Shown: positions 1 through 9,984, counted from the first letter of the stretch. The stretch is 9,984 nt of DNA from a virus (IMGVR_UViG_2703718842_000003); one strand, 5' to 3'. The notes: generated from the letters alone by a model not told the origin. Made by a program: numbers and translations.

Positions 1-312
1 TTACTGCGAACCATCGCCCCCGCTGGTGGTATGCCGTTGCCTCTTGCCGCCATTTAACCGGAAGGCGTTACCGTTCGGTTGCGCTATCCCCATGCGGTGC
101 TGAGTTTCGGTGACAGCTTTATGCAGGTCGCCAAAGTCCTCAACCTTCACGGGCGGGCGCTTCACGTTCTCCAGACACGTTTCACGGCGGCGCTTTATCC
201 ATTCCCGATCATCGTCCTCGGTGCATAACAGCATGACTTCCATCCATCGCGCGGCGGCGCGTCGGTACAGCCCTTTTGCTTCCAGATCCTCAGCTTTGCT
301 GTCGTTTACCAT
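1..312 (-). CDS. PerC-family-like transcriptional regulator (about 103 aa)
   Basis: Six-frame ORF 1..318 begins with GTG; in-frame ATG at 312..310 is preceded by GAGGGGGG about 6 nt upstream. N-terminus MVNDSKAEDLEAKGLYRRAAARWMEVM resembles PerC-family proteins as I recall them from enterobacterial prophage-like islands. TAA stop at 1..3, so it appears complete. Confidence 0.5.
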   Translation of the reverse strand: MVNDSKAEDLEAKGLYRRAAARWMEVMLLCTEDDDREWIKRRRETCLENVKRPPVKVEDFGDLHKAVTETQHRMGIAQPNGNAFRLNGGKRQRHTTSGGDGSQ

Positions 313-323
313 GTTCACCCCCC

Positions 324-785
324 TCAGAATGGCGTTTCATCGTCGAATGGTGGGCGCTGGTCAAAATCATCAGGGGTGTTATATAGCTCCCATCCCGGCG
401 CGGATTGCGTTTCGTGGCCCCTGCTGGCTCCACTTGCTTTGACTGACTCGGCCCGCTTCCCGCCGGGGCGTACCGTTCTGGCGCTGATCACGCTGTCGGC
501 TACTACCTGATACCCCTGCTGTGTACCGCCATCCTTGCCCGCCCACTGATTGACCTGCATCGCTCCGGCAACACTGACTAAATCGCCTTTAACGTGTCCT
601 GCCAGTGCGTCGGCCTGTTTGCCGAATGCCACCACGCCCAGCCAGAAAGTAACCTCTCCGCCCTCTGCTGCATGGCAAGGCAGTGCCACCGCTAAACGCC
701 CCATTGTCATGCTGCCGCCGCTGTTTGTCGTTCTGGTCTGGGGATCTGCCACCAGCCGCCCGTAGGCTGATATCTGTGCTGTCAT
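324..785 (-). CDS. ssb: Single-stranded DNA-binding protein (SSB), 153 aa
   Basis: ATG at 785..783 with GAGG upstream; glycine/glutamine-rich middle and acidic C-terminal tip DDETPF, comparable to the canonical SSB tail DDDIPF; lies immediately downstream of the origin. Confidence 0.8.
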   Translation of the reverse strand: MTAQISAYGRLVADPQTRTTNSGGSMTMGRLAVALPCHAAEGGEVTFWLGVVAFGKQADALAGHVKGDLVSVAGAMQVNQWAGKDGGTQQGYQVVADSVISARTVRPGGKRAESVKASGASRGHETQSAPGWELYNTPDDFDQRPPFDDETPF

Positions 786-888
786 TTTGCGAATACCTCG
801 AATTATTAGTTTTGCTAATGAAGATTGCCCGGCACCGTCTTATTGTGGGACACCTTCGCCAGATTTTTTTGTATATAAACAAAAATAG

Positions 889-1148
889 TGTTGTCTCTGT
901 TGTCTTTGTTGTCTCACGGCTCTACAGGCCGCGCCACGTCTGGGTTTTGCTGAGACAACATTTGCAATTTCGTGTTGTCTCACCCGGCATAAATGTTGTC
1001 TCACTGCCTGCCGGACTAAAAACACACGTTCGCCCTGTTGTCTCAAAATGGCTAAATGTTGTCTCAATGTTGTCTCAGAAATTAAAATAAAATCCTTATA
1101 AATCAATGTAACTTACAAAATGAGACAACAAAGACAACTGAGACAACA
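889..1148. repeat. Iteron array, probable replication origin, with an AT-rich tract (about 1078..1120)
   Basis: 10-mer TGTTGTCTCA in direct orientation at 907, 973, 994, 1036, 1057, 1068 (variants at 889 and 898) and as inverse TGAGACAACA at 951, 1121, 1139 (variant at 1131). Spacings of 21, 21, 42 and 11 bp suggest helical phasing. Sits directly downstream of the primase-helicase stop (1174). Confidence 0.75.
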
Positions 1149-1173
1149 CTAAAACTACGTATGTGAAAAAAGA

Positions 1174-3933
1174 TTATTCTTCTGGCTGGCTGCTTTCCTC
1201 ATCCATGAAGTTGAGCACATAAACGCGAATTTGCCGCCCTCCTTCCCTTACCCGCCCCTGATAACCTCGCCCGCTCGTTGGTGGTGTTAGCATTCCTGCA
1301 TTCTTGAGAACTTCGGCAAACTGCCTGACATTAAAACCCCGTGCGATCTCCTGCTCAAATGTTGCCGGGAAGGTGTAGAAAATTATCGGGTCGCCGTCGT
1401 GGTTCCCCTTCTTCCTGTACCCGGCTAAATCACGGATGGGTAAATCGCGCGGGTCATAACCCAGCGGCGCGAATCTACTCAGCCCATAGGCATTTAAAAA
1501 CGCCTCCGTCTGCTCGATGATCTGCTGGTGCTCTTTGTTCCCCGTGCCGAACTCTTTCAGCCATGCGTTATAGGTGTGCTGTATCGCATCCCGGCACGTT
1601 TGAGCATCCCAGCCAGTAACCACGCCACCCAGCAGTAAAGCGGCCTCCAGAATGGCGAACCTCGCCCCTACACGGTGAACCTGTTCCCCATAGTCAGCAG
1701 GGATTAGACTTCGCCATCGGGCTTCACACTCACGAACGGCATCAATCGCCTGCTGCTGGTGGTCTGAAAGCCATCTAATCCACTCCCGCCCGGCAGCGCC
1801 ATGATGGTGCTGGTAAGCGTCTTTCAGCGCGTCGGCGTGATCTTTCCCTGTCTGGTGCTCATGAAAGCGCACCGCCTTACTCAGCGGGATATTCAGCAGT
1901 CGCACCAGTTGCCCCGCTTTTGTCTTGCGTCCTGCGGTGGCGATGAACGTTTCTAAATCCATTTCCCCGGTGCTGATTGCCACGGTGCGCCAGCGTTTCA
2001 GATCCCGGTTGCTTCCTTCCTTTGCTCCCTGCAATTTCCCCACGCCGTTAAACAGGGCATAGGCAGACTGAGAAACGCTTATCGGGTCTGCGCCCTGTCC
2101 GACTTCATCCAGCGGCATCAGCCCGTCATTGTGGGCGGCGGCCTCGTTTATCAGCCCCAGCGCCGTCCCATACCACGTCAGGCGCAAGGCATCAGGGTTG
2201 CCGTAAAGACTGCTCGCCACGTTCTGCGTGGTTGTTTTCCCGGCGCTCGATTGCTCATAAAAATGAATCCCGAATCCGTCACGATCTGCCACCCCGATTA
2301 ATGGCGCTGCCAGTGCTGCGGCGATGCCTGTCATCATCGCGTAGTTGCCGTATGCCAGCCGCGCAACACTGTTAAGCCAGCTTTCAGGCGTTCCTGCTAC
2401 GGTATACCCGGCAGCGGCTGAACTGCGCCCGCTGAACAAAACAGGCCGCTGAGGTGTGCCGATGATTTCCCCGTCCGGCATGATGTATGCCCCACACTGC
2501 CAGCCTGTAGCATGAGCAACGCGCCACAATTCACGCGAGCCGCTTCGCTGTAACCAGTCGGCAAGAATCGCCCGTAGGCTGTTTTTCGTTGTGACGTTGA
2601 CGCCACCAGCTTTCAGGGTGCGCCAGCCTTCACGCTCGCCAATATCAGCCAGCGGGATAGCCGCTGTTGTCGGTATGCCTGCACCAAATGCCAGCCATGA
2701 GATAATAAGATACTGATCTTTGTCGTCGCGTCCCGTGCCGATAACCTCCAACGGTGAACATAACCAGCTTTCAGCGTTGATGATCTCCCCGCTTTCCTTG
2801 TCCACCTTCGGCGTTACCCAGAAAACGCCATCTTTTCGGCTCTCAATGTGGGGTTTTAGTGGGTCTTTCTCTGGATGGTCAGTTTTACCGCCCTCAATGG
2901 CTTGCAATCGCGGTTTCACGGCTTCCCCTTGAATCTGGTACATCGAATCGTTAAACGCAGCCGTAGCGACTTCCAGCCCGTTTTGCTGGCGGTAGTCGTC
3001 CCAGTCGGCTTTGTAGTCTGTCGGCGGCAGCGCCACCCAGCCAGCCACGGATAAGGCGGCTTTCTCTGCGGCATCTTTGCCCGTGTTCGCCTGGTCGTCC
3101 TGCTGGTGGTCGTTATCTGCGGCAATGATAATCTGCGTGGCTGGATATATCCGGCGCATCACTTCGGCAACGGGTAGCAGGTTGCCCGCGTCAATTGCTG
3201 CCACTGCCAGCGCGTCCGGGCGCATCAGGTGAACTGAAAGGGCCGTCGCCAGCCCCTCGGCAATTAAAACGCTCTGCGGCGATTCTGGCGCGTTTACGGC
3301 GTGATATGCCCCGCGCTTTGCTGAACCTGTCAGGAGTCGTTTATCTCCCTGCGGCGTGATGGTCTGCGCCGCCACTACTGCGCCGGATTCATCCACCAGC
3401 GGCAGGAGTAGCGAACCATCAGACATAACCGGGTAATTAAACCCGGTCAGCCCTTTTGATTGCAGGTAATCAGATTCGCCCTGTGTGACACTCTGGCGCA
3501 TTCCGGCATACAGACGGGCAAACGTAGCCCTTCGCTGCTCTGCGTCCTCTGCTGCCTGTTTCTGGCGCTCCTGCTCACGCTGCTGGCGGTCAGCTTCCAG
3601 TTGCTCTCTTCTATGGCTCGCTGCCACCGGGTCGGTTTGCGCTGCCCGGTAATCAATACCCAGCACGTCAGCGGCAAGCTGTGCCGCCTCCGTAGTGCCG
3701 CAGTTGTTAACCCGCTTGATTAAATCCAGCCCGTCACCAGCGCCACACTGGTTGCAGATAAAGCTACCGCGCCCGTTGTCGTCGAATCTGAAACGGTCTT
3801 TTCCTCCACATGCAGGGCACGGAGAATGGCGGCGCGATGAATCAGGCACGTCGATAGACAGGCCAGCCAGCACATAAGGCCAGTTACCAGCGGCGGCGGT
3901 GGTCACTTCGCGGATAAGGTCGATATTACGCAT
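1174..3933 (-). CDS. Primase-helicase, P4 alpha / pri-rep type (919 aa)
   Basis: ATG at 3933 with GGGAGG 9 nt upstream. N-terminal Zn-ribbon CPAC...CNQC (residues 39-63), TOPRIM-like AEGLATA and IIAADNDHQ acidic motif, C-terminal P-loop-like SSAGKTT consistent with a D5/SF3-type helicase. Family call from motif recollection. Confidence 0.9.
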   Translation of the reverse strand: MRNIDLIREVTTAAAGNWPYVLAGLSIDVPDSSRRHSPCPACGGKDRFRFDDNGRGSFICNQCGAGDGLDLIKRVNNCGTTEAAQLAADVLGIDYRAAQTDPVAASHRREQLEADRQQREQERQKQAAEDAEQRRATFARLYAGMRQSVTQGESDYLQSKGLTGFNYPVMSDGSLLLPLVDESGAVVAAQTITPQGDKRLLTGSAKRGAYHAVNAPESPQSVLIAEGLATALSVHLMRPDALAVAAIDAGNLLPVAEVMRRIYPATQIIIAADNDHQQDDQANTGKDAAEKAALSVAGWVALPPTDYKADWDDYRQQNGLEVATAAFNDSMYQIQGEAVKPRLQAIEGGKTDHPEKDPLKPHIESRKDGVFWVTPKVDKESGEIINAESWLCSPLEVIGTGRDDKDQYLIISWLAFGAGIPTTAAIPLADIGEREGWRTLKAGGVNVTTKNSLRAILADWLQRSGSRELWRVAHATGWQCGAYIMPDGEIIGTPQRPVLFSGRSSAAAGYTVAGTPESWLNSVARLAYGNYAMMTGIAAALAAPLIGVADRDGFGIHFYEQSSAGKTTTQNVASSLYGNPDALRLTWYGTALGLINEAAAHNDGLMPLDEVGQGADPISVSQSAYALFNGVGKLQGAKEGSNRDLKRWRTVAISTGEMDLETFIATAGRKTKAGQLVRLLNIPLSKAVRFHEHQTGKDHADALKDAYQHHHGAAGREWIRWLSDHQQQAIDAVRECEARWRSLIPADYGEQVHRVGARFAILEAALLLGGVVTGWDAQTCRDAIQHTYNAWLKEFGTGNKEHQQIIEQTEAFLNAYGLSRFAPLGYDPRDLPIRDLAGYRKKGNHDGDPIIFYTFPATFEQEIARGFNVRQFAEVLKNAGMLTPPTSGRGYQGRVREGGRQIRVYVLNFMDEESSQPEE

Positions 3934-3947
3934 TCGTGTTACCTCCC

Positions 3948-4574
3948 TCAGTGCGCCGCTGGCATTTCAGGCCAGCCGTTTTCATCCAGATCAGCAATGA
4001 AGTGATCGTGTAGCTCTGCCAGCGTTTCACGTCCGAACGGGGTCAGCTCGCCGCGCTCCGTATCCAGCATGGACTGATAAAACACAATGGCTTTTTCCGT
4101 ACCCTGTTCGACGCCGTATCGCTCAATCATTGCGCCCTCGATGTTGTTCGCCATCGCCAGGCGTTCAGCAAACGGGTAAACCACAATGCCCGCTGTGCCA
4201 TTGGAGTAAATCGCCACCTGCGATGATGTGCCGTCAGACTCAGTAACCGTGGTGGTGCCGTTCTCGCGCTTCATCTCAGAAATGAACGTCGCAGCAATCA
4301 GCCAGCGCCACATAGTGACGTTATGCTGCGCGGTGAAGTCGAACCAGCCACGCGCCCCGCCATCAGCAACGGCAAAATGAATGGCGTATCCGATATCTGG
4401 CTTATCGTCGTACTCTCCGGCGTCAAGGCCGTTCACGGCGCTCTCGTAGCTGATAAGAGCAACCTGCTCATATCCCCCGGCATCATTGCGGGTCATGATA
4501 TTGACGCCGTGCGGTGTGGCTTCGGCGTGTAATAAGTCGGCATTTCCCGATTTAATGGTCGGTGCGTTGCTCAT
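3948..4574 (-). CDS. Hypothetical protein (208 aa), first gene upstream of primase
   Basis: ATG at 4574 with GGAGGG 6 nt upstream; TGA stop at 3948 sits inside the primase RBS region; no motif I can assign. Confidence 0.6.
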   Translation of the reverse strand: MSNAPTIKSGNADLLHAEATPHGVNIMTRNDAGGYEQVALISYESAVNGLDAGEYDDKPDIGYAIHFAVADGGARGWFDFTAQHNVTMWRWLIAATFISEMKRENGTTTVTESDGTSSQVAIYSNGTAGIVVYPFAERLAMANNIEGAMIERYGVEQGTEKAIVFYQSMLDTERGELTPFGRETLAELHDHFIADLDENGWPEMPAAH

Positions 4575-4834
4575 GCGCTGCCCTCCGCATCAATTCTGGC
4601 TATATCGACAATCGTCAGGACTTTACTCAGCCAGCAATGCGCGATGGCTGCTTGCTCACCTTCGAGGAGTGGTAATAAATCGGTCATAACGTGAGCCAGC
4701 CCATTGCGGGCGCGGGTCATGCGTTCTGCTGTTCGGTCTGCCAGCGTAAAATCATCCGGGTATGATTCTTTGCGAGATAGCATCGCTTCGGCTTCCAGCT
4801 CTGCCGGGTGGCGGTAGATGGTATTTATGTTCAT
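4571..4834 (-). CDS. Hypothetical protein (87 aa)
   Basis: ATG at 4834 with GAGGTG upstream; its TGA stop overlaps the ATG of the 208-aa gene (ATGA overlap, 4571..4574), indicating translational coupling. Confidence 0.5.
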   Translation of the reverse strand: MNINTIYRHPAELEAEAMLSRKESYPDDFTLADRTAERMTRARNGLAHVMTDLLPLLEGEQAAIAHCWLSKVLTIVDIARIDAEGSA

Positions 4835-5010
4835 GCTGCCACCTCACGAATGCGGGTAATCTGGATGTGGGAAAGGCGTTCATTTCTGGCCTGATTTAGC
4901 GCCTCAGCTTTGGCGCTGATCGCGCTGCGGGCGTCAACGATATAAACGAACTCGACTAATTCGCCGCTCCGGGCGGTGGCGCATCCTGCAACACGGAAGT
5001 AATTAAGCAT
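4831..5010 (-). CDS. Hypothetical small protein (about 59 aa)
   Basis: Six-frame ORF 4831..5100 begins with TTG; internal ATG at 5010 has GGGGG about 6 nt upstream and overlaps the stop of the Ash/Icd frame by 8 nt; its stop overlaps the next start (ATGA at 4831..4834). Confidence 0.45.
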   Translation of the reverse strand: MLNYFRVAGCATARSGELVEFVYIVDARSAISAKAEALNQARNERLSHIQITRIREVAA

Positions 5011-5194
5011 GTGCGCCCCCTGTGCGAATACGTCCGGCAAAAAAGCAGACGTGATCGCGCACCAGAGAACGGCGAGCATCGCGTTCAGACTCGGCAGCAA
5101 TATGATGAATTTTGGCGGTAATTGTCGGCATGTCGCGGCGAACTGCTGCGATAATCCAGATAAATTGCGGTTTTTTGGTAGGGGTAGTAGCCAT
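5003..5194 (-). CDS. Icd-like host cell-division inhibitor family-like small protein (63 aa), nested in-frame in the Ash-like ORF
   Basis: Perfect AGGAGG (plus-strand cctcct 5204..5209) lies 9 nt upstream of ATG at 5194; product MATTPTKKPQFIWIIAAVRRDMPTITAKIHHIAAESERDARRSLVRDHVCFFAGRI matches my recollection of Icd-like proteins of enterobacterial prophages/satellites. Confidence 0.55.
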   Translation of the reverse strand: MATTPTKKPQFIWIIAAVRRDMPTITAKIHHIAAESERDARRSLVRDHVCFFAGRIRTGGAHA

Positions 5195-5332
5195 TATGGC
5201 AGCCTCCTGTAACTGGGATTTATTCCCACCACCGGAAACGCCAATTTCACTGGTGGTGAGCTGAACAGGGTTGGCGTAACCGGCGTTACAGGAAACCGGC
5301 GCGGATCGCTCCGCCCCCATCCAGCCCACCAT
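5003..5332 (-). CDS. Ash-family-like protein (about 109 aa if started at MVGWMG); true start uncertain because the frame stays open up to 5962
   Basis: Segment MVGWMGAERSAPVSCNAGYANPVQLTTSEIGVSGGGNKSQLQEAAIMAT resembles Ash-family N-termini as I recall them; the frame is continuous with the Icd-like reading frame. Weak RBS at 5332; alternative in-frame ATGs at 5728 and 5791. Confidence 0.45.
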   Translation of the reverse strand: MVGWMGAERSAPVSCNAGYANPVQLTTSEIGVSGGGNKSQLQEAAIMATTPTKKPQFIWIIAAVRRDMPTITAKIHHIAAESERDARRSLVRDHVCFFAGRIRTGGAHA

Positions 5333-5764
5333 TACTTTTTGAGCAATATGGGCTATAGCCATATCGCCGGGAAAGAGGTGTGCAGATGCGAGGACACAAA
5401 AAAAGACGCTCGGCGCGTCATGTGTCGCCTGTAACATTATCAGGACGCCAATCCCGGCACCAGATTTTGCTGGCGCGCTATAACCATAAACCGGGTTGGC
5501 GATAGTCGGCAAGCCCTTTTTTATGGACTCCGAATACTCACCTTCTCGCGTAACGACCCCTAAAAAATCTTCCAGCGCACGCGTATTTGTCTCGAAAGTC
5601 GATGTGGAACGGTTCACAACGGTAGCAATCCAGTTCATACCACCAGCTAGCAGAAGGAATTTATTCCCCACAGCCAGCTTTTTTGAGGTTATTTTTTCTT
5701 GGTTTAAAATGTCATCATTTGTCGTCATCCCCCGTGCGTGGATGTCAGGTTTTGACAGGTTCAG

Positions 5765-5861
5765 GCTAAGTTTTGCTAAGTCCTTAGCCATAACAATTGA
5801 TAACAGGTAATCGTTCACAACCTTAGGTTTTATAAGGTTCTGAGGGTTAACATTTGTTAAC
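5765..5861 (-). promoter_or_regulatory. Palindrome-rich AT-rich putative operator region upstream of the Ash/Icd-primase gene block
   Basis: GCTAAG at 5765 and perfect palindrome GCTAAGTCCTTAGC at 5775..5788; TAACA direct repeat flanking CAATTG (5791..5805); palindrome AACCTTAGGTT at 5819..5829; two GTTAAC hexamers 4 bp apart at 5846..5861. No convincing sigma70 -35/-10 pair identified by eye. Confidence 0.3.
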
Positions 5862-5900
5862 AGGCTAGCCAGATTAAAGGCTTCTTTCTGGGCGGCAGGT

Positions 5901-6083
5901 TCATTCAGTATCACGGCGCACCTCCACGAACTCCTTAACGAATCTCTCCAAAGGCTGAACACATGGCGACTGATAGCCCTCGCGGTAAAAGGTCACTCGG
6001 TTATGCTCGACGCGCTGTACGGTCACTACAGCCCCGTGACTGTCCTTGTAACGGCTTCCCGGCATCGGATTATGGTTACGCAT
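5901..6083 (-). CDS. DUF4222-like small protein (60 aa)
   Basis: ATG at 6083 with GGAGGT 5 nt upstream; sequence PGSRYKDSHGAVVTVQRVEHNRVTFYREGYQSPCVQPLERFVKEF resembles DUF4222 proteins common in enterobacterial prophages (recollection). Confidence 0.6.
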   Translation of the reverse strand: MRNHNPMPGSRYKDSHGAVVTVQRVEHNRVTFYREGYQSPCVQPLERFVKEFVEVRRDTE

Positions 6084-6909
6084 GGTTTACCTCCAGACGT
6101 TTAGCGAGCCAGCGTTGCGACAGGCGGGTGAGTTCTCCTTTGCGCTGCTCATATTCCATGCCCATATCAATTAACGTGATATTGGTGCTTTCGAGATAGG
6201 CGAGGTGTTCAAGCTGTGCTGCGTTCATGCTGTCCCGTGGTTCGCCAGTAATGCCATTTGCCTGCGCCCACTGCTTCGCCGTCATGCCACCCAGCACGAT
6301 ACGGGCGATCATGTTGCTCTCGTTGCTGTAGTGGCGCTGCTGCGTCGTTTTCCCCTGCTCGGCACGGGCCATATTCAGCGCATCGCACATTGGCTTAAAG
6401 TTGTTTGCGGCACTGATACGGGCTTTTAGCTGGCGACGATAGCGGGCGGCGATTTCAGGCACGGTACGCTGTAATTCTTCCTCGCACTGGATGAAATAAC
6501 GGCGGATAGCGCGACCCTGATCATTGCGTTCGATCATTGCCAGTTCTTTCGCCATTCCGACACTTAACAGATAGTCTTTGCCGGGTCTGCCAGAGTGCTT
6601 TATCTTGCTGTAAGCCGCGCCATTCGGGCTTTTCCCCAAATTTGGGGAAATTGTTTTATGGACTGAGTAATCGTGCCCAATGGTGAAGTCATATTCAGAG
6701 ATGCGATCAGTGATCCATGTAGAGAAGTCTTTTCCCACGCCCAACGCTTTGTGTAACGCTTTTGCGCTAACAATATTGGTTTCACGCCCACCGATATGAC
6801 CAGGAATAACCGGGACAATTGCGGCAAATTCATTACCGTTAATTGTGCCCTGATAGGCGTTCAGATGAGGGGCGGCCTCAGAAATTAATCTGCTTTTTTC
6901 GATGTTCAT
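6076..6909 (-). CDS. Phage antirepressor-like protein, AntA/KilAC-type (277 aa)
   Basis: ATG at 6909 with GGAG 7 nt upstream; N-terminal NIVSAKALHKALGVGKDFSTWITDRISEYDFTIGHDY matches the AntA/AntB antirepressor N-domain pattern; stop overlaps the DUF4222-like start region by 8 nt. Confidence 0.7.
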   Translation of the reverse strand: MNIEKSRLISEAAPHLNAYQGTINGNEFAAIVPVIPGHIGGRETNIVSAKALHKALGVGKDFSTWITDRISEYDFTIGHDYSVHKTISPNLGKSPNGAAYSKIKHSGRPGKDYLLSVGMAKELAMIERNDQGRAIRRYFIQCEEELQRTVPEIAARYRRQLKARISAANNFKPMCDALNMARAEQGKTTQQRHYSNESNMIARIVLGGMTAKQWAQANGITGEPRDSMNAAQLEHLAYLESTNITLIDMGMEYEQRKGELTRLSQRWLAKRLEVNHA

Positions 6910-6921
6910 TTTCAGTCTCCG

Positions 6922-7356
6922 TTAGGCGGCGGTGAGATTGTCCGGGTATAGATTGAGAATGTCGGCAATTTCAGGCTGAGAAAGTCCCTGATAGCCCCCA
7001 GCGTCGGCGTTATGGTTCACAAGCCGAATAACTTTTAGAACGTCACCGCGCCCGGTAAAGCGATAGCGTAAATGTGACCCGATCCCGTCGGGATTCTTTT
7101 CGTCGATACGCTCTAACTGAATATCAAGCCTGCGTTCTAACTCGCTGGCGTAGTTCCTTCCAGACGAAAGGCGGCAGTAGCGCAGAATGTCGTTTTCTGT
7201 CCATCCCTCTACCCCAGTGCGTAGCATATAGACGCGGGCGCGGTGCTTCTTCGGTGTGCGGCGTGGCGCTTGTGTGGTGGGCGCTGGTGGCGTAACATCA
7301 GATCCGCGAATATCTATGTTAGCCGCCTGCTGTCCGGGGCGGTTTTCTTTTTTCAT
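6922..7356 (-). CDS. Hypothetical protein (144 aa) with a basic, proline-rich N-terminus
   Basis: Start ATG shares one nucleotide with the alpA stop (TGATG, plus-strand catca at 7354..7358), so it is translationally coupled to alpA; no motif assigned. Confidence 0.6.
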   Translation of the reverse strand: MKKENRPGQQAANIDIRGSDVTPPAPTTQAPRRTPKKHRARVYMLRTGVEGWTENDILRYCRLSSGRNYASELERRLDIQLERIDEKNPDGIGSHLRYRFTGRGDVLKVIRLVNHNADAGGYQGLSQPEIADILNLYPDNLTAA

Positions 7357-7574
7357 CAGGCCACCTTCCCGCGACGCTCTGCCAGCCAGTTGTTAATCTC
7401 TACCGCATCAAAGGCGGTAATCTTCTCGCCCAGCTTTACCGGGCGCGGCAGAACCCCATTGCGAACTTTGCGATCAATGGTGGAAACGCTAACGCCCAGC
7501 AATTCAGCAAGGCGGAAGCGTCGGATATAGCCAGATTGGGGGATTGTGTGGGTTGTTGCGTTATGTGTTGCCAT
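7356..7574 (-). CDS. alpA: AlpA / excisionase-family HTH regulator (72 aa)
   Basis: ATG at 7574; core RLAELLGVSVSTIDRKVRNGVLPRPVKLGEKITAFDAVEINNWL follows the AlpA/Xis-type winged-HTH pattern (HTH, then G.FP.P.klG, then a conserved W). Confidence 0.8.
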   Translation of the reverse strand: MATHNATTHTIPQSGYIRRFRLAELLGVSVSTIDRKVRNGVLPRPVKLGEKITAFDAVEINNWLAERRGKVA

Positions 7575-7685
7575 ATGTCCCGTAACCTCTTTTGATGGTT
7601 GTTGCTTCGTTACGGGTATGATGGGAGCAATAGATTGTAATGTATCGGAATTATTAGAAAACTCCCCGGAATTTTCATAATTCCG
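7575..7685 (-). promoter_or_regulatory. alpA leader/operator region with inverted and direct repeats
   Basis: Inverted repeat CCCGTAAC (7579..7586) / GTTACGGG (7609..7616) bracketing the alpA SD (cctc 7586..7589). CGGAATT direct repeats at 7646 and 7667 (21 bp apart) plus inverted copy ATAATTCCG at 7677..7685. Minus-strand TACAAT (-10-like) at 7639..7634. Confidence 0.4.
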
Positions 7686-8609
7686 TTATCGGTTGACTCC
7701 CCCTTTTCGCAGCCAATCTATAAGCGTCTTATCATCATCCGGGAGTGGTAGCTCCTCACCTTTATTGTTAGCTTTATTTCTCAGTTGTGTAATGCTGCCT
7801 TTTAAATCACTATCGGTTAAGCCTATACGTTTAAGTAATGCGACAATTAGTCTCATCTGTTTTTCTGTTGTTTTTACTGGTTTTCCTACATTCATTTCCG
7901 TCGGCGGTAAGGGAATAACACCTCCGTTAATCATGCTTTTAATCGGCTCGCCTGTGTCTATTGCGTCTTTGAGTTTTAAAATGGTATCTCTGGCAATAAA
8001 TAGATCGGAAGTTGTCAAAGTCTCATTAAGCGCAGGTTTTCGGCTCTCACTTAACTGAAACCCTATGCTTTCGGTTAGTTGTCTGTTTAGCGTAGGTAGC
8101 CAGCTCTGATTAAAATATCTATCGCTAATTATCTGACACGAAAGGCCAGTCTTCTCGCGGAAAGTGTCCCATCCGAACGGCCTGAAAATTGTCGTGTCTA
8201 TCACCCTTGCCCTCTTAGAATAAAGAAGACTTTCTATTTCACTGTGTCCCAGACACCATAGCCCGTTCGCCAATCCTCTAAATAAAATAAGCCCACTATC
8301 TGTTTTGTATGCGTCATGTTCGGTGAGCGTGGAATTAAAATGAGATATATAGTTGCCCTCACGAAAAAGAAATGATGAGTTTCCTTTGTGTTCGTGATAA
8401 AACTCAATTGGGTCTTTTATATCTTTACCGCCTATAAAAGCCAAAGTAGAAGAAAATCCTCTCATCATTATACACAACGGTATAGCCCCAATAACTCCAT
8501 AGTGAAGTAAATCATCTGTATCGCATTGCAAAATACTAGCTGCCCTGTCGAGCTTAAAGTATTCCATAGGTGGGATTTTAATACTGCTGTGGGCTTCTTT
8601 TTTGGTCAT
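7686..8609 (-). CDS. Orphan hypothetical protein (about 307 aa from ATG 8609; 312 aa if GTG 8624), AT-rich cargo-like gene between int and alpA
   Basis: Long ORF with AGGTG 5 nt upstream of ATG 8609; sampled 60-nt lines are roughly 35-40% GC versus roughly 55-70% in int and primase (hand counts); no family motif recognised. Confidence 0.7.
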   Translation of the reverse strand: MTKKEAHSSIKIPPMEYFKLDRAASILQCDTDDLLHYGVIGAIPLCIMMRGFSSTLAFIGGKDIKDPIEFYHEHKGNSSFLFREGNYISHFNSTLTEHDAYKTDSGLILFRGLANGLWCLGHSEIESLLYSKRARVIDTTIFRPFGWDTFREKTGLSCQIISDRYFNQSWLPTLNRQLTESIGFQLSESRKPALNETLTTSDLFIARDTILKLKDAIDTGEPIKSMINGGVIPLPPTEMNVGKPVKTTEKQMRLIVALLKRIGLTDSDLKGSITQLRNKANNKGEELPLPDDDKTLIDWLRKGGVNR

Positions 8610-8641
8610 CGCGTCACCTTTCACGCTGTGCCTTAAAGAGT

Positions 8642-8697
8642 GATTGAGCCAGGCGGTAAGGCTTCCCGCTTTTCGCCCCGTCGGGCTAGGCTCAATC
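8642..8697 (-). other. Compound hairpin in the int / cargo-gene intergenic region
   Basis: 9-bp inverted repeat GATTGAGCC (8642..8650) / GGCTCAATC (8689..8697) enclosing a GC-rich inner palindrome (GCCCCGTCGGGC, CCCG..CGGG); no clear U-tract on the minus-strand transcript. Confidence 0.35.
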
Positions 8698-8724
8698 TGT
8701 CCTCTGATTCTTTACATATCTTGG

Positions 8725-9984
8725 TTACTTCGCCTTTCTCAGCGGTGTAACGTTGTACTCTTCGCCGCGCTCCAGTGCCACCAGCAATCCCGCCCACTGT
8801 GTTAACGCGGCCCGGCGTTCATCAAAGTATTGGTGGCGGTTATAGATACCCTCCACGCCTTTAATTTTGTGGTTAAGGCATCTTTCTGCGACTACAGGAT
8901 CAACGCCCAGCGCGGCTAAATGGGTGCGGGCCGTGCGCCGGAAGTCGTGAATAGTGAAATTCGGCACGTCCGGCATTTCAGCGCGAACCTTCGCCAGCGC
9001 AACGGGCAGGGTGCTTTCCTGAATATGGGGGATCATGCGGTTTTGCATCTTTCTGGCTGGCAGTACCCATGCGCTGTTGCATGAGAACGTTTTAAGCTCT
9101 CTCAGCCATTCGACTGCTGGCGGTGCTAATGGAATGTCTATAGCGTCGCCGTTTTTGCTGCGTTCCTCTGGCAAGCGCCATACGGCTTTATCAAGATCGA
9201 ACTCCTCCCAGCGGGCGGCGCATAACTCCATTTTGCGGACGCATAACGCTAACAGTAATTTGAACGTGATTTCATTCTGGCGACTGAAACCCTTAGCCGT
9301 GCGCATGGCTTTGAATAGCTGGATTAACTCATCGCGTGTTAGCCAGCGGTCGCGGCTAACCTCCTTCCCTCCAGCGTCTGCCACCTCAAAGGCTGAACAG
9401 GGGTTAATCTCCAGCGCGTGCCGTTTGATTCCGTAGTCGAATATGCGGCGCGTCCATCTCAGCACGTCCGTTGCTATGGTCGGCGCTCCACGGTCAACAA
9501 TACCTTTCAGCATGTCGTCGATATGGCGCGGCTTCACGTCCTCTACCTTCATGCTGCCAATGCAGGGGTTTATATCTTTGTCGATACGGCGGCGGAGTAT
9601 ATCGGGGTGCTTCCAGCGGGGCAGTATCTGACGTTCAAAGTATTCAGCGGCAAGCTCTGAAACGCGCATGGCGTTTTTTTCTGCTTCCATCTTCGCTAGT
9701 GCTTCGGATTTCCGCTCCTGCTTCTCCCCGGCAACGTCATAACCCAGCGCAACACGCGCCGAAAGCTCCTTTGCTGTCTCTCTGGCCTTTGATAGTGATA
9801 GCTCGCTATACGAACCAATTAGCATTGCGCGGGACTTCCCTGCGAGTTTATAGCGGAATCTCCATGTGGGGGTTTTGTCGGCTTCACGGTAACGCAGGTA
9901 TAAGCCGTTCCCGTCCGCCCGTCCCTCGAATCGCTCTCCGGCCTTTATCCACGCGCGGATCTGCATGTCTGTGAGTTTTGGCAT
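8725..9984 (-). CDS. int: Tyrosine site-specific integrase, P4-type (419 aa)
   Basis: ATG at 9984 (window edge, upstream signals not visible); catalytic-region motifs HDFRRTARTHLA (HxxR) and GIYNRHQY (tyrosine nucleophile context); N-terminal arm-binding-type domain typical of P4-family integrases. Confidence 0.9.
   Translation of the reverse strand: MPKLTDMQIRAWIKAGERFEGRADGNGLYLRYREADKTPTWRFRYKLAGKSRAMLIGSYSELSLSKARETAKELSARVALGYDVAGEKQERKSEALAKMEAEKNAMRVSELAAEYFERQILPRWKHPDILRRRIDKDINPCIGSMKVEDVKPRHIDDMLKGIVDRGAPTIATDVLRWTRRIFDYGIKRHALEINPCSAFEVADAGGKEVSRDRWLTRDELIQLFKAMRTAKGFSRQNEITFKLLLALCVRKMELCAARWEEFDLDKAVWRLPEERSKNGDAIDIPLAPPAVEWLRELKTFSCNSAWVLPARKMQNRMIPHIQESTLPVALAKVRAEMPDVPNFTIHDFRRTARTHLAALGVDPVVAERCLNHKIKGVEGIYNRHQYFDERRAALTQWAGLLVALERGEEYNVTPLRKAK

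Follow-up and report, generated by a model that had tools for sequence, protein, structure and literature searches.

The viral contig IMGVR_UViG_2703718842_000003, a stretch of 9,984 nucleotides that we refer to as the window, probably represents the int-to-perC part of a Gram-negative phage-inducible chromosomal island (PICI), a phage satellite that integrated by means of its own integrase at the last codons of the host gene yicC. The window matches the Escherichia coli locus L086 with 100% identity (positions 3950-13933, reversed), where it makes up most of a 12.8-kb island at positions 3750-16567. The six-frame list of open reading frames (ORFs) holds 13 credible, tightly packed ORFs in the window, all of them on the minus strand, and nothing credible on the plus strand. 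A preliminary description of the window had already pointed out that every credible gene, the integrase included, shares this orientation, and the same one-strand arrangement is annotated in near-identical E. coli islands and in L086. It had also given the gene order as integrase, cargo, alpA, antirepressor, Ash/Icd, primase-helicase, iteron origin, ssb and a PerC-like regulator, an order that we confirm here; ORFs were assigned to families with Pfam, PHROG and NCBIfam.

Several of the features by which Gram-negative PICIs were defined by Fillol-Salom et al. 2018 (PMC6092414) are found in this island. Integrase, AlpA and a replication module follow each other in conserved order on one strand, the length of 12.8 kb (13.5 kb for the copy in E. 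coli L001) falls within the range of approximately 12-15 kb reported for Gram-negative PICIs, and iterons surround an AT-rich region next to the primase-replication gene (pri-rep), as is the case for PICI origins. Gram-negative PICIs furthermore share four zones, named Integration, Bro, Replication and Late, and are separated from prophages by an inward-pointing integrase together with AlpA (PMC10111431). Here, the Integration zone consists of int and alpA, the Bro zone of an AntA/AntB antirepressor and an Ash/Eta-like ORF with relatives of the CI and seqA RNAs, and the Replication zone of primase, origin and single-strand DNA-binding protein (SSB), while a Late zone is in position without recognisable late genes. 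Under the PICI scheme of SatelliteFinder (de Sousa et al. 2023), three of the five core components are present, which places the island in Type C; a capsid-morphogenesis gene was not found.

The seven-component definition of P4-like satellites (de Sousa et al. 2021 and 2023), on the other hand, does not cover the island, which is without Sid, Delta, Psu and Epsilon. The lack of sid, delta and psu had been stated before for the stretch between int and the primase; tblastn returned no homologue of these three P4 proteins or of Epsilon at E<=1, neither in the window nor in the complete island of a relative with 97% identity. The AntA/AntB antirepressor stands instead of Epsilon, and may play an analogous role.

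Integration site and island ends

The tyrosine integrase of 419 residues (8725-9984, minus strand) carries Arm-DNA-bind_3, Phage_int_M and Phage_integrase domains and points into the island. It is 100% identical to an E. coli integrase adjoining yicC, and integrases of this type have yicC immediately upstream of them in 16 species. Comparison with the empty site of E. coli strain HS places the island junction directly after the yicC stop codon, and the far island end bears CAAATTCAATAGAGTAA, an imperfect direct copy of the last 21 nt of yicC, CAAATTCAGAATATCGAGTAA. The preliminary description had expected an attachment site next to int, often a tRNA 3' end, with a direct repeat at the other end; both the junction and the repeat were found there, but the tRNA has to be given up, as the insertion occurred at the 3' end of a protein gene and a tRNA search of the window found none. 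Moreover, the published att cores of two predicted PICIs, CfCIP10159 (ATCGAGTAAG) and EcCIRM13514 (GAGCAGATTCAA), fall in the same 3' segment of yicC that is used by this island.

Within the island, a 28-nt direct repeat, CCGTGTACACAAnnGTGTACCCAATGAG, is located approximately 107 nt inside one end and approximately 58 nt inside the other (L086 3857-3884 and 16466-16493). These repeats are rich in GTGTACAC and GGTACACC, and are probably arm-type binding sites of the integrase.

At least 80% of the window is present in 34 complete E. coli genomes, the best-matching of which are approximately 97% identical, and the same island end at yicC occurs in approximately 470 of 5426 E. coli genomes. The gene order in L086 reads slmA, a reverse-transcriptase gene, pyrE, rph, yicC, the island, dinD, yicG, ligB and gmk, with housekeeping genes on both sides at no more than 250 bp from the island ends. 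Flanking DNA had been named as the place where a full-size prophage, or sid, delta and psu just outside the window, might show up. Neither was found: in L086, the island is bordered by yicC and dinD, and neither a prophage nor anything phage-like surrounds it.

Gene content and the C4-type RNA locus

Beyond the integrase, the reading direction of the island leads to an RNA motif, a cargo gene and alpA. RNA elements were called by Rfam on the coding strand, and the three families found, int-alpA, isrK and C4, all score above their gathering thresholds. The int-alpA motif (RF02996; 8630-8696, minus strand; 64.9 bits against a gathering score of 35.8) is placed between the int stop codon and the cargo gene rather than immediately ahead of alpA, and was found in L001 as well.

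The orphan cargo gene in the int-alpA slot (minus strand, approximately 41% GC) most likely encodes 307 residues at 7686-8609, its ORF being open to 8624. It has no match in Pfam, PHROG, PADLOC or NCBIfam, and its homologues in Klebsiella, Raoultella, Citrobacter, Dickeya, Enterobacter and others are all annotated as 'hypothetical'. An AF2 model of the protein is of medium confidence (pLDDT 66), and Foldseek found nothing in the PDB below an E-value of 0.5. Distant homologues fill the same slot in other genera. The slot corresponds to the defence hotspot of P4-like satellites, and we regard this widely distributed gene as a candidate accessory or defence gene.

Upstream of alpA, a promoter-like site at 7650-7678 (minus strand; a consensus match only) matches in position the helper-induced alpA promoter described for PICIs, and could be its counterpart. 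The AlpA/Vis-type helix-turn-helix regulator itself (72 residues; 7356-7574, minus strand; PF05930) is presumed to be the master activator and is a possible excision factor. It is 71% identical to AlpA of EcCIRM13514, 37% to P4 Vis and 33% to AlpA of EcCIMP1, a satellite that is compared with the island below. Its stop codon overlaps the start of a conserved ORF of 144 residues (6922-7356, minus strand), which has no family match, is 75% identical to the EcCIMP1 ORF at the same position, and follows alpA in 43 of 78 species-level loci. The AntA/AntB antirepressor (277 residues; 6076-6909; PF08346, phrog_5817) and a DUF4222 protein (60 residues; 5901-6083; PF13973) come next, both on the minus strand. 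After the Ash/Icd locus, three small minus-strand ORFs of 59, 87 and 208 residues with overlapping stops and starts (3948-5010) fill the space up to the primase gene. The largest of them matches phrog_1515, a family without an assigned function; they are 63% identical to their EcCIMP1 counterparts, and show no similarity to P4 epsilon, orf151 or orf106. Since stops and starts overlap among the ORFs from alpA to the primase, this stretch is probably a single transcription unit.

The Ash/Icd gene of the preliminary description turned out to be more than a protein gene. A long Ash/Eta-like ORF (5003-5962, minus strand), which ends in an Icd-like domain, matches Phage_ASH at residues 160-263 and is 40% identical to the cI/eta region of P4, in agreement with what had been proposed. 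Overlooked, however, was that it embeds a C4/CI-type RNA and an isrK/seqA-like target of this RNA, the Phage_ASH match covering exactly the stretch that bears them. The C4 antisense RNA, of the P4 CI/P1 C4 family, is a full-length Rfam match at 5249-5336 (minus strand; 76.9 bits against a gathering score of 45). Upstream of it lies the isrK element, equivalent to P4 seqA (5399-5476, minus strand; 72.2 bits against a gathering score of 50), in a region that also matches the c4-a1b1 upstream target of C4 (5399-5489, minus strand), with 39.1 bits and thus below the gathering score. An intrinsic terminator at 5405-5419 ends isrK, and is the only minus-strand terminator found in the window. Downstream, the Icd-like cell-division inhibitor ORF of 63 residues (5003-5194, minus strand; NF033153, 71.6 bits against a cut-off of 25) has its Shine-Dalgarno sequence AGGAGG at 5203-5208, inside the downstream C4 target GUUACAGGAGG.

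The C4 loop UUUCCUGUAAC and the ACGCCAA that follows are complementary to GUUACAGG and UUGGCGU, blocks that occur both upstream, within isrK (5428-5435 and approximately 5451), and downstream (5205-5213 and approximately 5244). When duplexes were evaluated with RNAduplex, the pairing of C4 with the upstream target was not better than that of shuffled sequences (72 of 300), while pairing with the downstream target stood out (0 of 300). Because duplex energy sets apart the downstream target only, the argument for pairing is based on these short complementary blocks. The layout of a C4 RNA between an upstream and a downstream target corresponds to the immunity design of P1 immI and P4, its elements being present in the sequence and its function following by homology.

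Such a pair of isrK and C4 is also found in P4 (as seqA and the CI immunity RNA), in EcCIMP1, and in relatives from Enterobacter, Klebsiella and Chimaeribacter. It was not found in the prototype Gram-negative PICI EcCICFT073, and EcCIRM13514 has no C4 or isrK match at the gathering score. The occurrence of C4/CI-type RNAs in some Gram-negative PICIs has been published before (PMC10111431). We also considered whether 'Ash' is a mere mistranslation of an RNA region, an option that was dropped because P4 eta is a real ORF which embeds CI and seqA. As a separate observation, the N-terminal part of the Ash/Eta-like ORF (5551-5825) is unrelated between the window and E. coli islands that are otherwise 95-99% identical to it, which gives it the look of an exchanged segment. 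When translated, it includes a motif, DYLLSxxMAKxLA, that resembles one in the AntA/AntB protein.

Replication functions occupy the rest of the window. The primase-helicase of 919 residues (1174-3933, minus strand) combines a Zn ribbon and Toprim_3 with DUF927. Its N-terminal 330 residues are 35% identical to P4 alpha, whereas the helicase module differs, being DUF927 here and D5_N/DUF5906/Pox_D5 in P4 alpha. These primase-helicases are domain mosaics, as a comparison of the window protein with those of L004 (4636-6969) and L006 (12242-13996) illustrates: P4 alpha joins a Zn-ribbon/Toprim N-terminus of the window type to a D5_N/DUF5906/Pox_D5 helicase of the EcCICFT073 type, and the primase of EcCIRM13514 is 49% identical to residues 301-771 of P4 alpha. 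The intergenic space that separates the primase gene from ssb holds the replication origin (889-1148, GC 42%), in which 11 iterons TGTTGTCTC in both orientations are grouped around an AT-rich stretch at approximately 1078-1120. The whole window contains 12 matches to TGTTGTCTC, the twelfth at 9772, compared to a mean of 2.0 in shuffled sequences, none of which reached 12 (0 of 200). On the far side of the origin, SSB (153 residues; 324-785; PF00436) and a PerC-family regulator (103-105 residues; 1-318; PF06069, E 2e-29) complete the window, both on the minus strand.

Relatives, mode of life and rival readings

Relatives of the island were gathered by their primase family, which yielded 78 species-level loci across the Enterobacterales and 80 IMG/VR contigs. 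Among loci with a detected integrase, this gene is upstream and co-directional in 60 of 62 species-level loci and in all 68 from IMG/VR. Furthermore, alpA/vis, the 144-residue ORF, AntA/AntB, DUF4222, Ash/Icd, ssb and perC are found again, in unchanged order, across the relatives. Homologues of P4 Sid, Delta, Psu and Epsilon were found neither in any of the 78 species-level loci (E<=0.05) nor in any of the 80 IMG/VR loci (E<=1e-3 for Sid, Delta and Psu). As for the late genes of EcCICFT073, no homologue of RppA or the decoration protein was found in the related loci, and the capsid gene gave a single weak, partial match (L053, E 7e-4). A Pfam census of 135 ORFs that follow the primase gene in 23 species showed neither terminase nor capsid among the 25 commonest families, with P22-type ejection proteins and SLT domains appearing sporadically.

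The closest tested relative is EcCIMP1 of E. coli MP1 (Pick, Stadel and Raivio 2025, PMC11773190), which excises only with its helper phage Kapi1, requires alpA and int to do so, and is transduced. Its transfer is specific in that a chromosomal marker was not transferred, and it takes place at very low frequency; with no identifiable packaging module, EcCIMP1 has the status of a 'Type C PICI' (PMC11773190). The island shares with it the succession of int, alpA, the 144-residue ORF, AntA/AntB, DUF4222, Ash/Icd with isrK and C4, the small ORFs and a Toprim-DUF927 primase, and beyond this perC, a 61-residue ORF, PRiA4_ORF3 and a 119-residue ORF. At the amino acid level, primase (78%), antirepressor (92%), PerC (89%) and DUF4222 (72%) are well conserved between the two, and the Ash-family region is 42-66% identical, with 66% for the Icd-like part. 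By contrast, the integrases are just 29% identical and the AlpA proteins, as given above, 33%, and EcCIMP1 occupies a tRNA-Thr site near proA instead of yicC. It is also larger (20 kb), with P22-like ejection-protein genes and a second alpA that this island does not have, and is without the ssb beside the origin, the cargo gene and a 125-residue ORF, all of which are present here. Across EcCIMP1-like elements, the antirepressor, Ash and primase are conserved while int, alpA and perC vary (PMC11773190), and the island shows this same pattern.

Two further PICIs, EcCIRM13514 (between yicC and dinD) and CfCIP10159 (between yicC and yicG), were predicted by Fillol-Salom et al. 2018 (Table S1, PMC6092414). 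EcCIRM13514 has an integrase 86% identical to that of the window and the order int, ORF, alpA, Rha/AntA, icd, primase, ssb and perC, with a primase of the D5_N/DUF5906/Pox_D5 type that is unlike the DUF927 primase of the window. CfCIP10159 is 12.4 kb long and carries perC; the likeness to it is one of listed attachment site. EcCICFT073 resembles the window in its inward int, alpA, icd-like gene, DUF4222, primase, origin, ssb and perC on one strand, with identities of 61% for SSB (at the same position), 44% for PerC and 42% for DUF4222. It differs in primase type, and possesses a lambda-type cos as well as genes for capsid, decoration and RppA, none of which occur in the island. Induction by a helper phage, interference with phages and specific packaging with frequent transfer, which also belong to the definition of Gram-negative PICIs, were demonstrated for EcCICFT073 and, at low frequency, for EcCIMP1. 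Going by these identities, the island is a mosaic of an int/alpA module of the yicC-specific EcCIRM13514/CfCIP10159 type, a backbone for regulation and replication of the EcCIMP1 type, and an ssb-perC pair as in EcCICFT073. The preliminary description suggested a distinct lineage, a suggestion that does not survive: the lineage has been on record since it was catalogued in 2018, experimental tests followed in 2025, and the island itself is an ordinary member.

Its assignment to PICI-like rather than classical P4-type elements fared better, given that the close relatives are published PICIs, yet the contrast with P4 was overstated. Like the island, P4 has iterons downstream of the primase, an arm-binding integrase, a CI/C4 RNA with its upstream target, and Vis/AlpA, and four ORFs of the window have P4 matches (Int at 26%, AlpA at 37%, the Ash/cI region at 40% and the primase N-terminus at 35%). 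Co-directionality of the integrase had been taken to set the island apart; in P4, int likewise runs with the alpha operon, int, alpha, epsilon, the cI ORF and vis all lying on one strand. Because attP is located between int and alpha, integrated P4 reads int ... vis, seqA, CI ... alpha, iterons, as does the island. To judge from the C4 RNA, Vis/AlpA and the primase N-terminus that resembles alpha, the island is related to P4 in its core of regulation and replication. The two differ where P4 carries its cII-beta-gop-cos-psu-delta-sid block, the place of which is taken by the 0.9-kb cargo gene, in the Bro zone, where the island has AntA/AntB and other genes, and after the origin, where it has ssb, perC and four small ORFs. 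As such, the island illustrates cleanly that a skeleton of AlpA/Vis, CI-type RNA immunity, Toprim primase and iterons is common to Gram-negative PICIs and P4, which differ in the block with which they exploit their helper. A paper on a jumbo-phage island was also looked at as a parallel and set aside, since it deals with an unrelated class of elements.

So how would such an island live in its host? Integration at the yicC end would be carried out by Int, as the junctions support. In the quiescent state, the C4-type RNA would pair with the upstream, terminator-ending target and with the downstream target over the icd ribosome-binding site, which, by homology with P4 and P1, would silence icd and the replication genes that lie downstream. 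The lytic cycle of a helper phage would then switch on alpA, which would activate itself in the manner suggested by the experiments on EcCICFT073 and EcCIMP1. Subsequently, the alpA-to-primase operon would be read through and the island excised by Int, possibly together with AlpA. From its anatomy, we would expect the primase-helicase, assisted by SSB, to replicate the island from the iteron origin. The antirepressor and Icd would act on helper and host, and the island DNA would exit in helper capsids.

Several points weigh against such a satellite life cycle. Setting aside a weak TerS-motif match, the whole island contains no recognisable capsid-morphogenesis gene, terS, Rpp or cos element; the Type C class of the SatelliteFinder scheme may include defective or non-satellite elements; even EcCIMP1 was transduced only at very low frequency (PMC11773190), and its AlpA shares just a third of its residues with that of the island. 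The first three of these points could also speak for an island that integrates and replicates itself without being a true satellite, and that would spread through generalised or lateral transduction, through conjugative mobilisation, or purely by vertical descent with its host. This we consider unlikely: family scans of the island found no relaxase or oriT-type gene, the excision of EcCIMP1 depends on its helper and its transfer is specific, and the antirepressor, the Icd protein and the C4-type RNA are modules for interaction with phages.

Rather less probable still is a decayed P4-like satellite, an immobile remnant that lost epsilon, cos and the sid-delta-psu late operon. The shared CI/C4 RNA and target, the four protein matches, among them a P4-family integrase, and the same circular gene order would all fit such a descent. 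However, a layout free of sid, delta and psu, with intact overlapping ORFs, recurs throughout the 78 species-level and 80 IMG/VR loci, EcCIMP1 is mobile on the same backbone, the helicase module is unlike that of alpha, and AntA/AntB, the 144-residue ORF, ssb and perC are conserved extras that are not P4 genes. That the window stems from the early genes of a prophage, be it full-size or defective, has next to no probability left. Relatives are listed as viral contigs in IMG/VR and several genes have PHROG matches, but the housekeeping genes close to both island ends in L086 refute it, structural and lysis genes are missing, an inward int is followed by alpA, and phage records cover no more than 14% of the window, none of them with a full-length homologue of the primase. 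A Gram-negative PICI thus remains the reading that we favour, and with it comes the question of how the very numerous 'Type C' PICIs, which carry no recognisable packaging gene, enter capsids.

The island beyond the window and its neighbours

The preliminary description supposed that a packaging or interference module, if any, would lie outside the window. The 2.6 kb of the island beyond it encode the 125-residue ORF, the 61-residue ORF, a PRiA4_ORF3 protein and, on the other strand, the 119-residue ORF, and no such module is recognisable among them: apart from a weak TerS motif, these four ORFs have no match to capsid, terminase, Rpp, Sid, Delta or Psu families. Searches of the island for lambda cosN and P2/P4 cos gave no more than expected by chance.

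The TerS motif belongs to the 125-residue ORF (L086 14343-14720), which lies 410 bp beyond PerC. Its protein family has an invariant, Gly/Asn-rich N-terminal GWGGKRxGAGAPxGNxNAxKHGE motif, and 29 of 30 members match the small-terminase family phrog_1889 (best E 5.5e-4), while against the NCBIfam TerS model NF040601 the protein reaches 18.8 bits, far under the cut-off of 120. There is no Pfam match, and no match to PDB sequences, either singly or as a profile. An AF2 model (pLDDT 78) consists of a disordered N-terminus and a long helical hairpin, which is too generic a shape and gave no fold match in BFVD. As neither fold nor PDB lends support, the link to TerS comes down to the 20-residue motif. 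The gene is present in a minority of relatives. In E. coli, exact 25-nt direct repeats flank it (L086 14004-14028 and 14794-14818), and these are not conserved in other species that have the gene. It is conceivable, if doubtful, that the protein is a miniature TerS or TerS mimic that redirects the helper terminase to the island, possibly via the flanking repeats. If true, this would be a third solution to the hijacking of packaging in Gram-negative PICIs, and would explain how 'Type C' elements move.

In the Late zone of other relatives, P22-type ejection genes (gp7, DUF2824, injectosome translocase, SLT) are found in L003 (7481-12649), L017, L037 and 6-8 of the 80 IMG/VR loci, EcCIMP1 being among the carriers, which suggests repeated capture of podovirus virion genes. 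Outside the L086 island, at a distance of approximately 3 kb, a reverse-transcriptase (RVT_1) gene for 319 residues is located between slmA and pyrE (L086 79-1038); it is not present in the other E. coli loci examined, and may be a retron. Some E. coli copies of the island, neither L086 nor strain PCN061 being among them, have an extra DinD-like (Bro-N) gene at their far end, where it adjoins the native dinD; in L001, where it spans 11634-12458, it matches the PADLOC candidate defence family PDC-S13 with an E-value of 3e-126.

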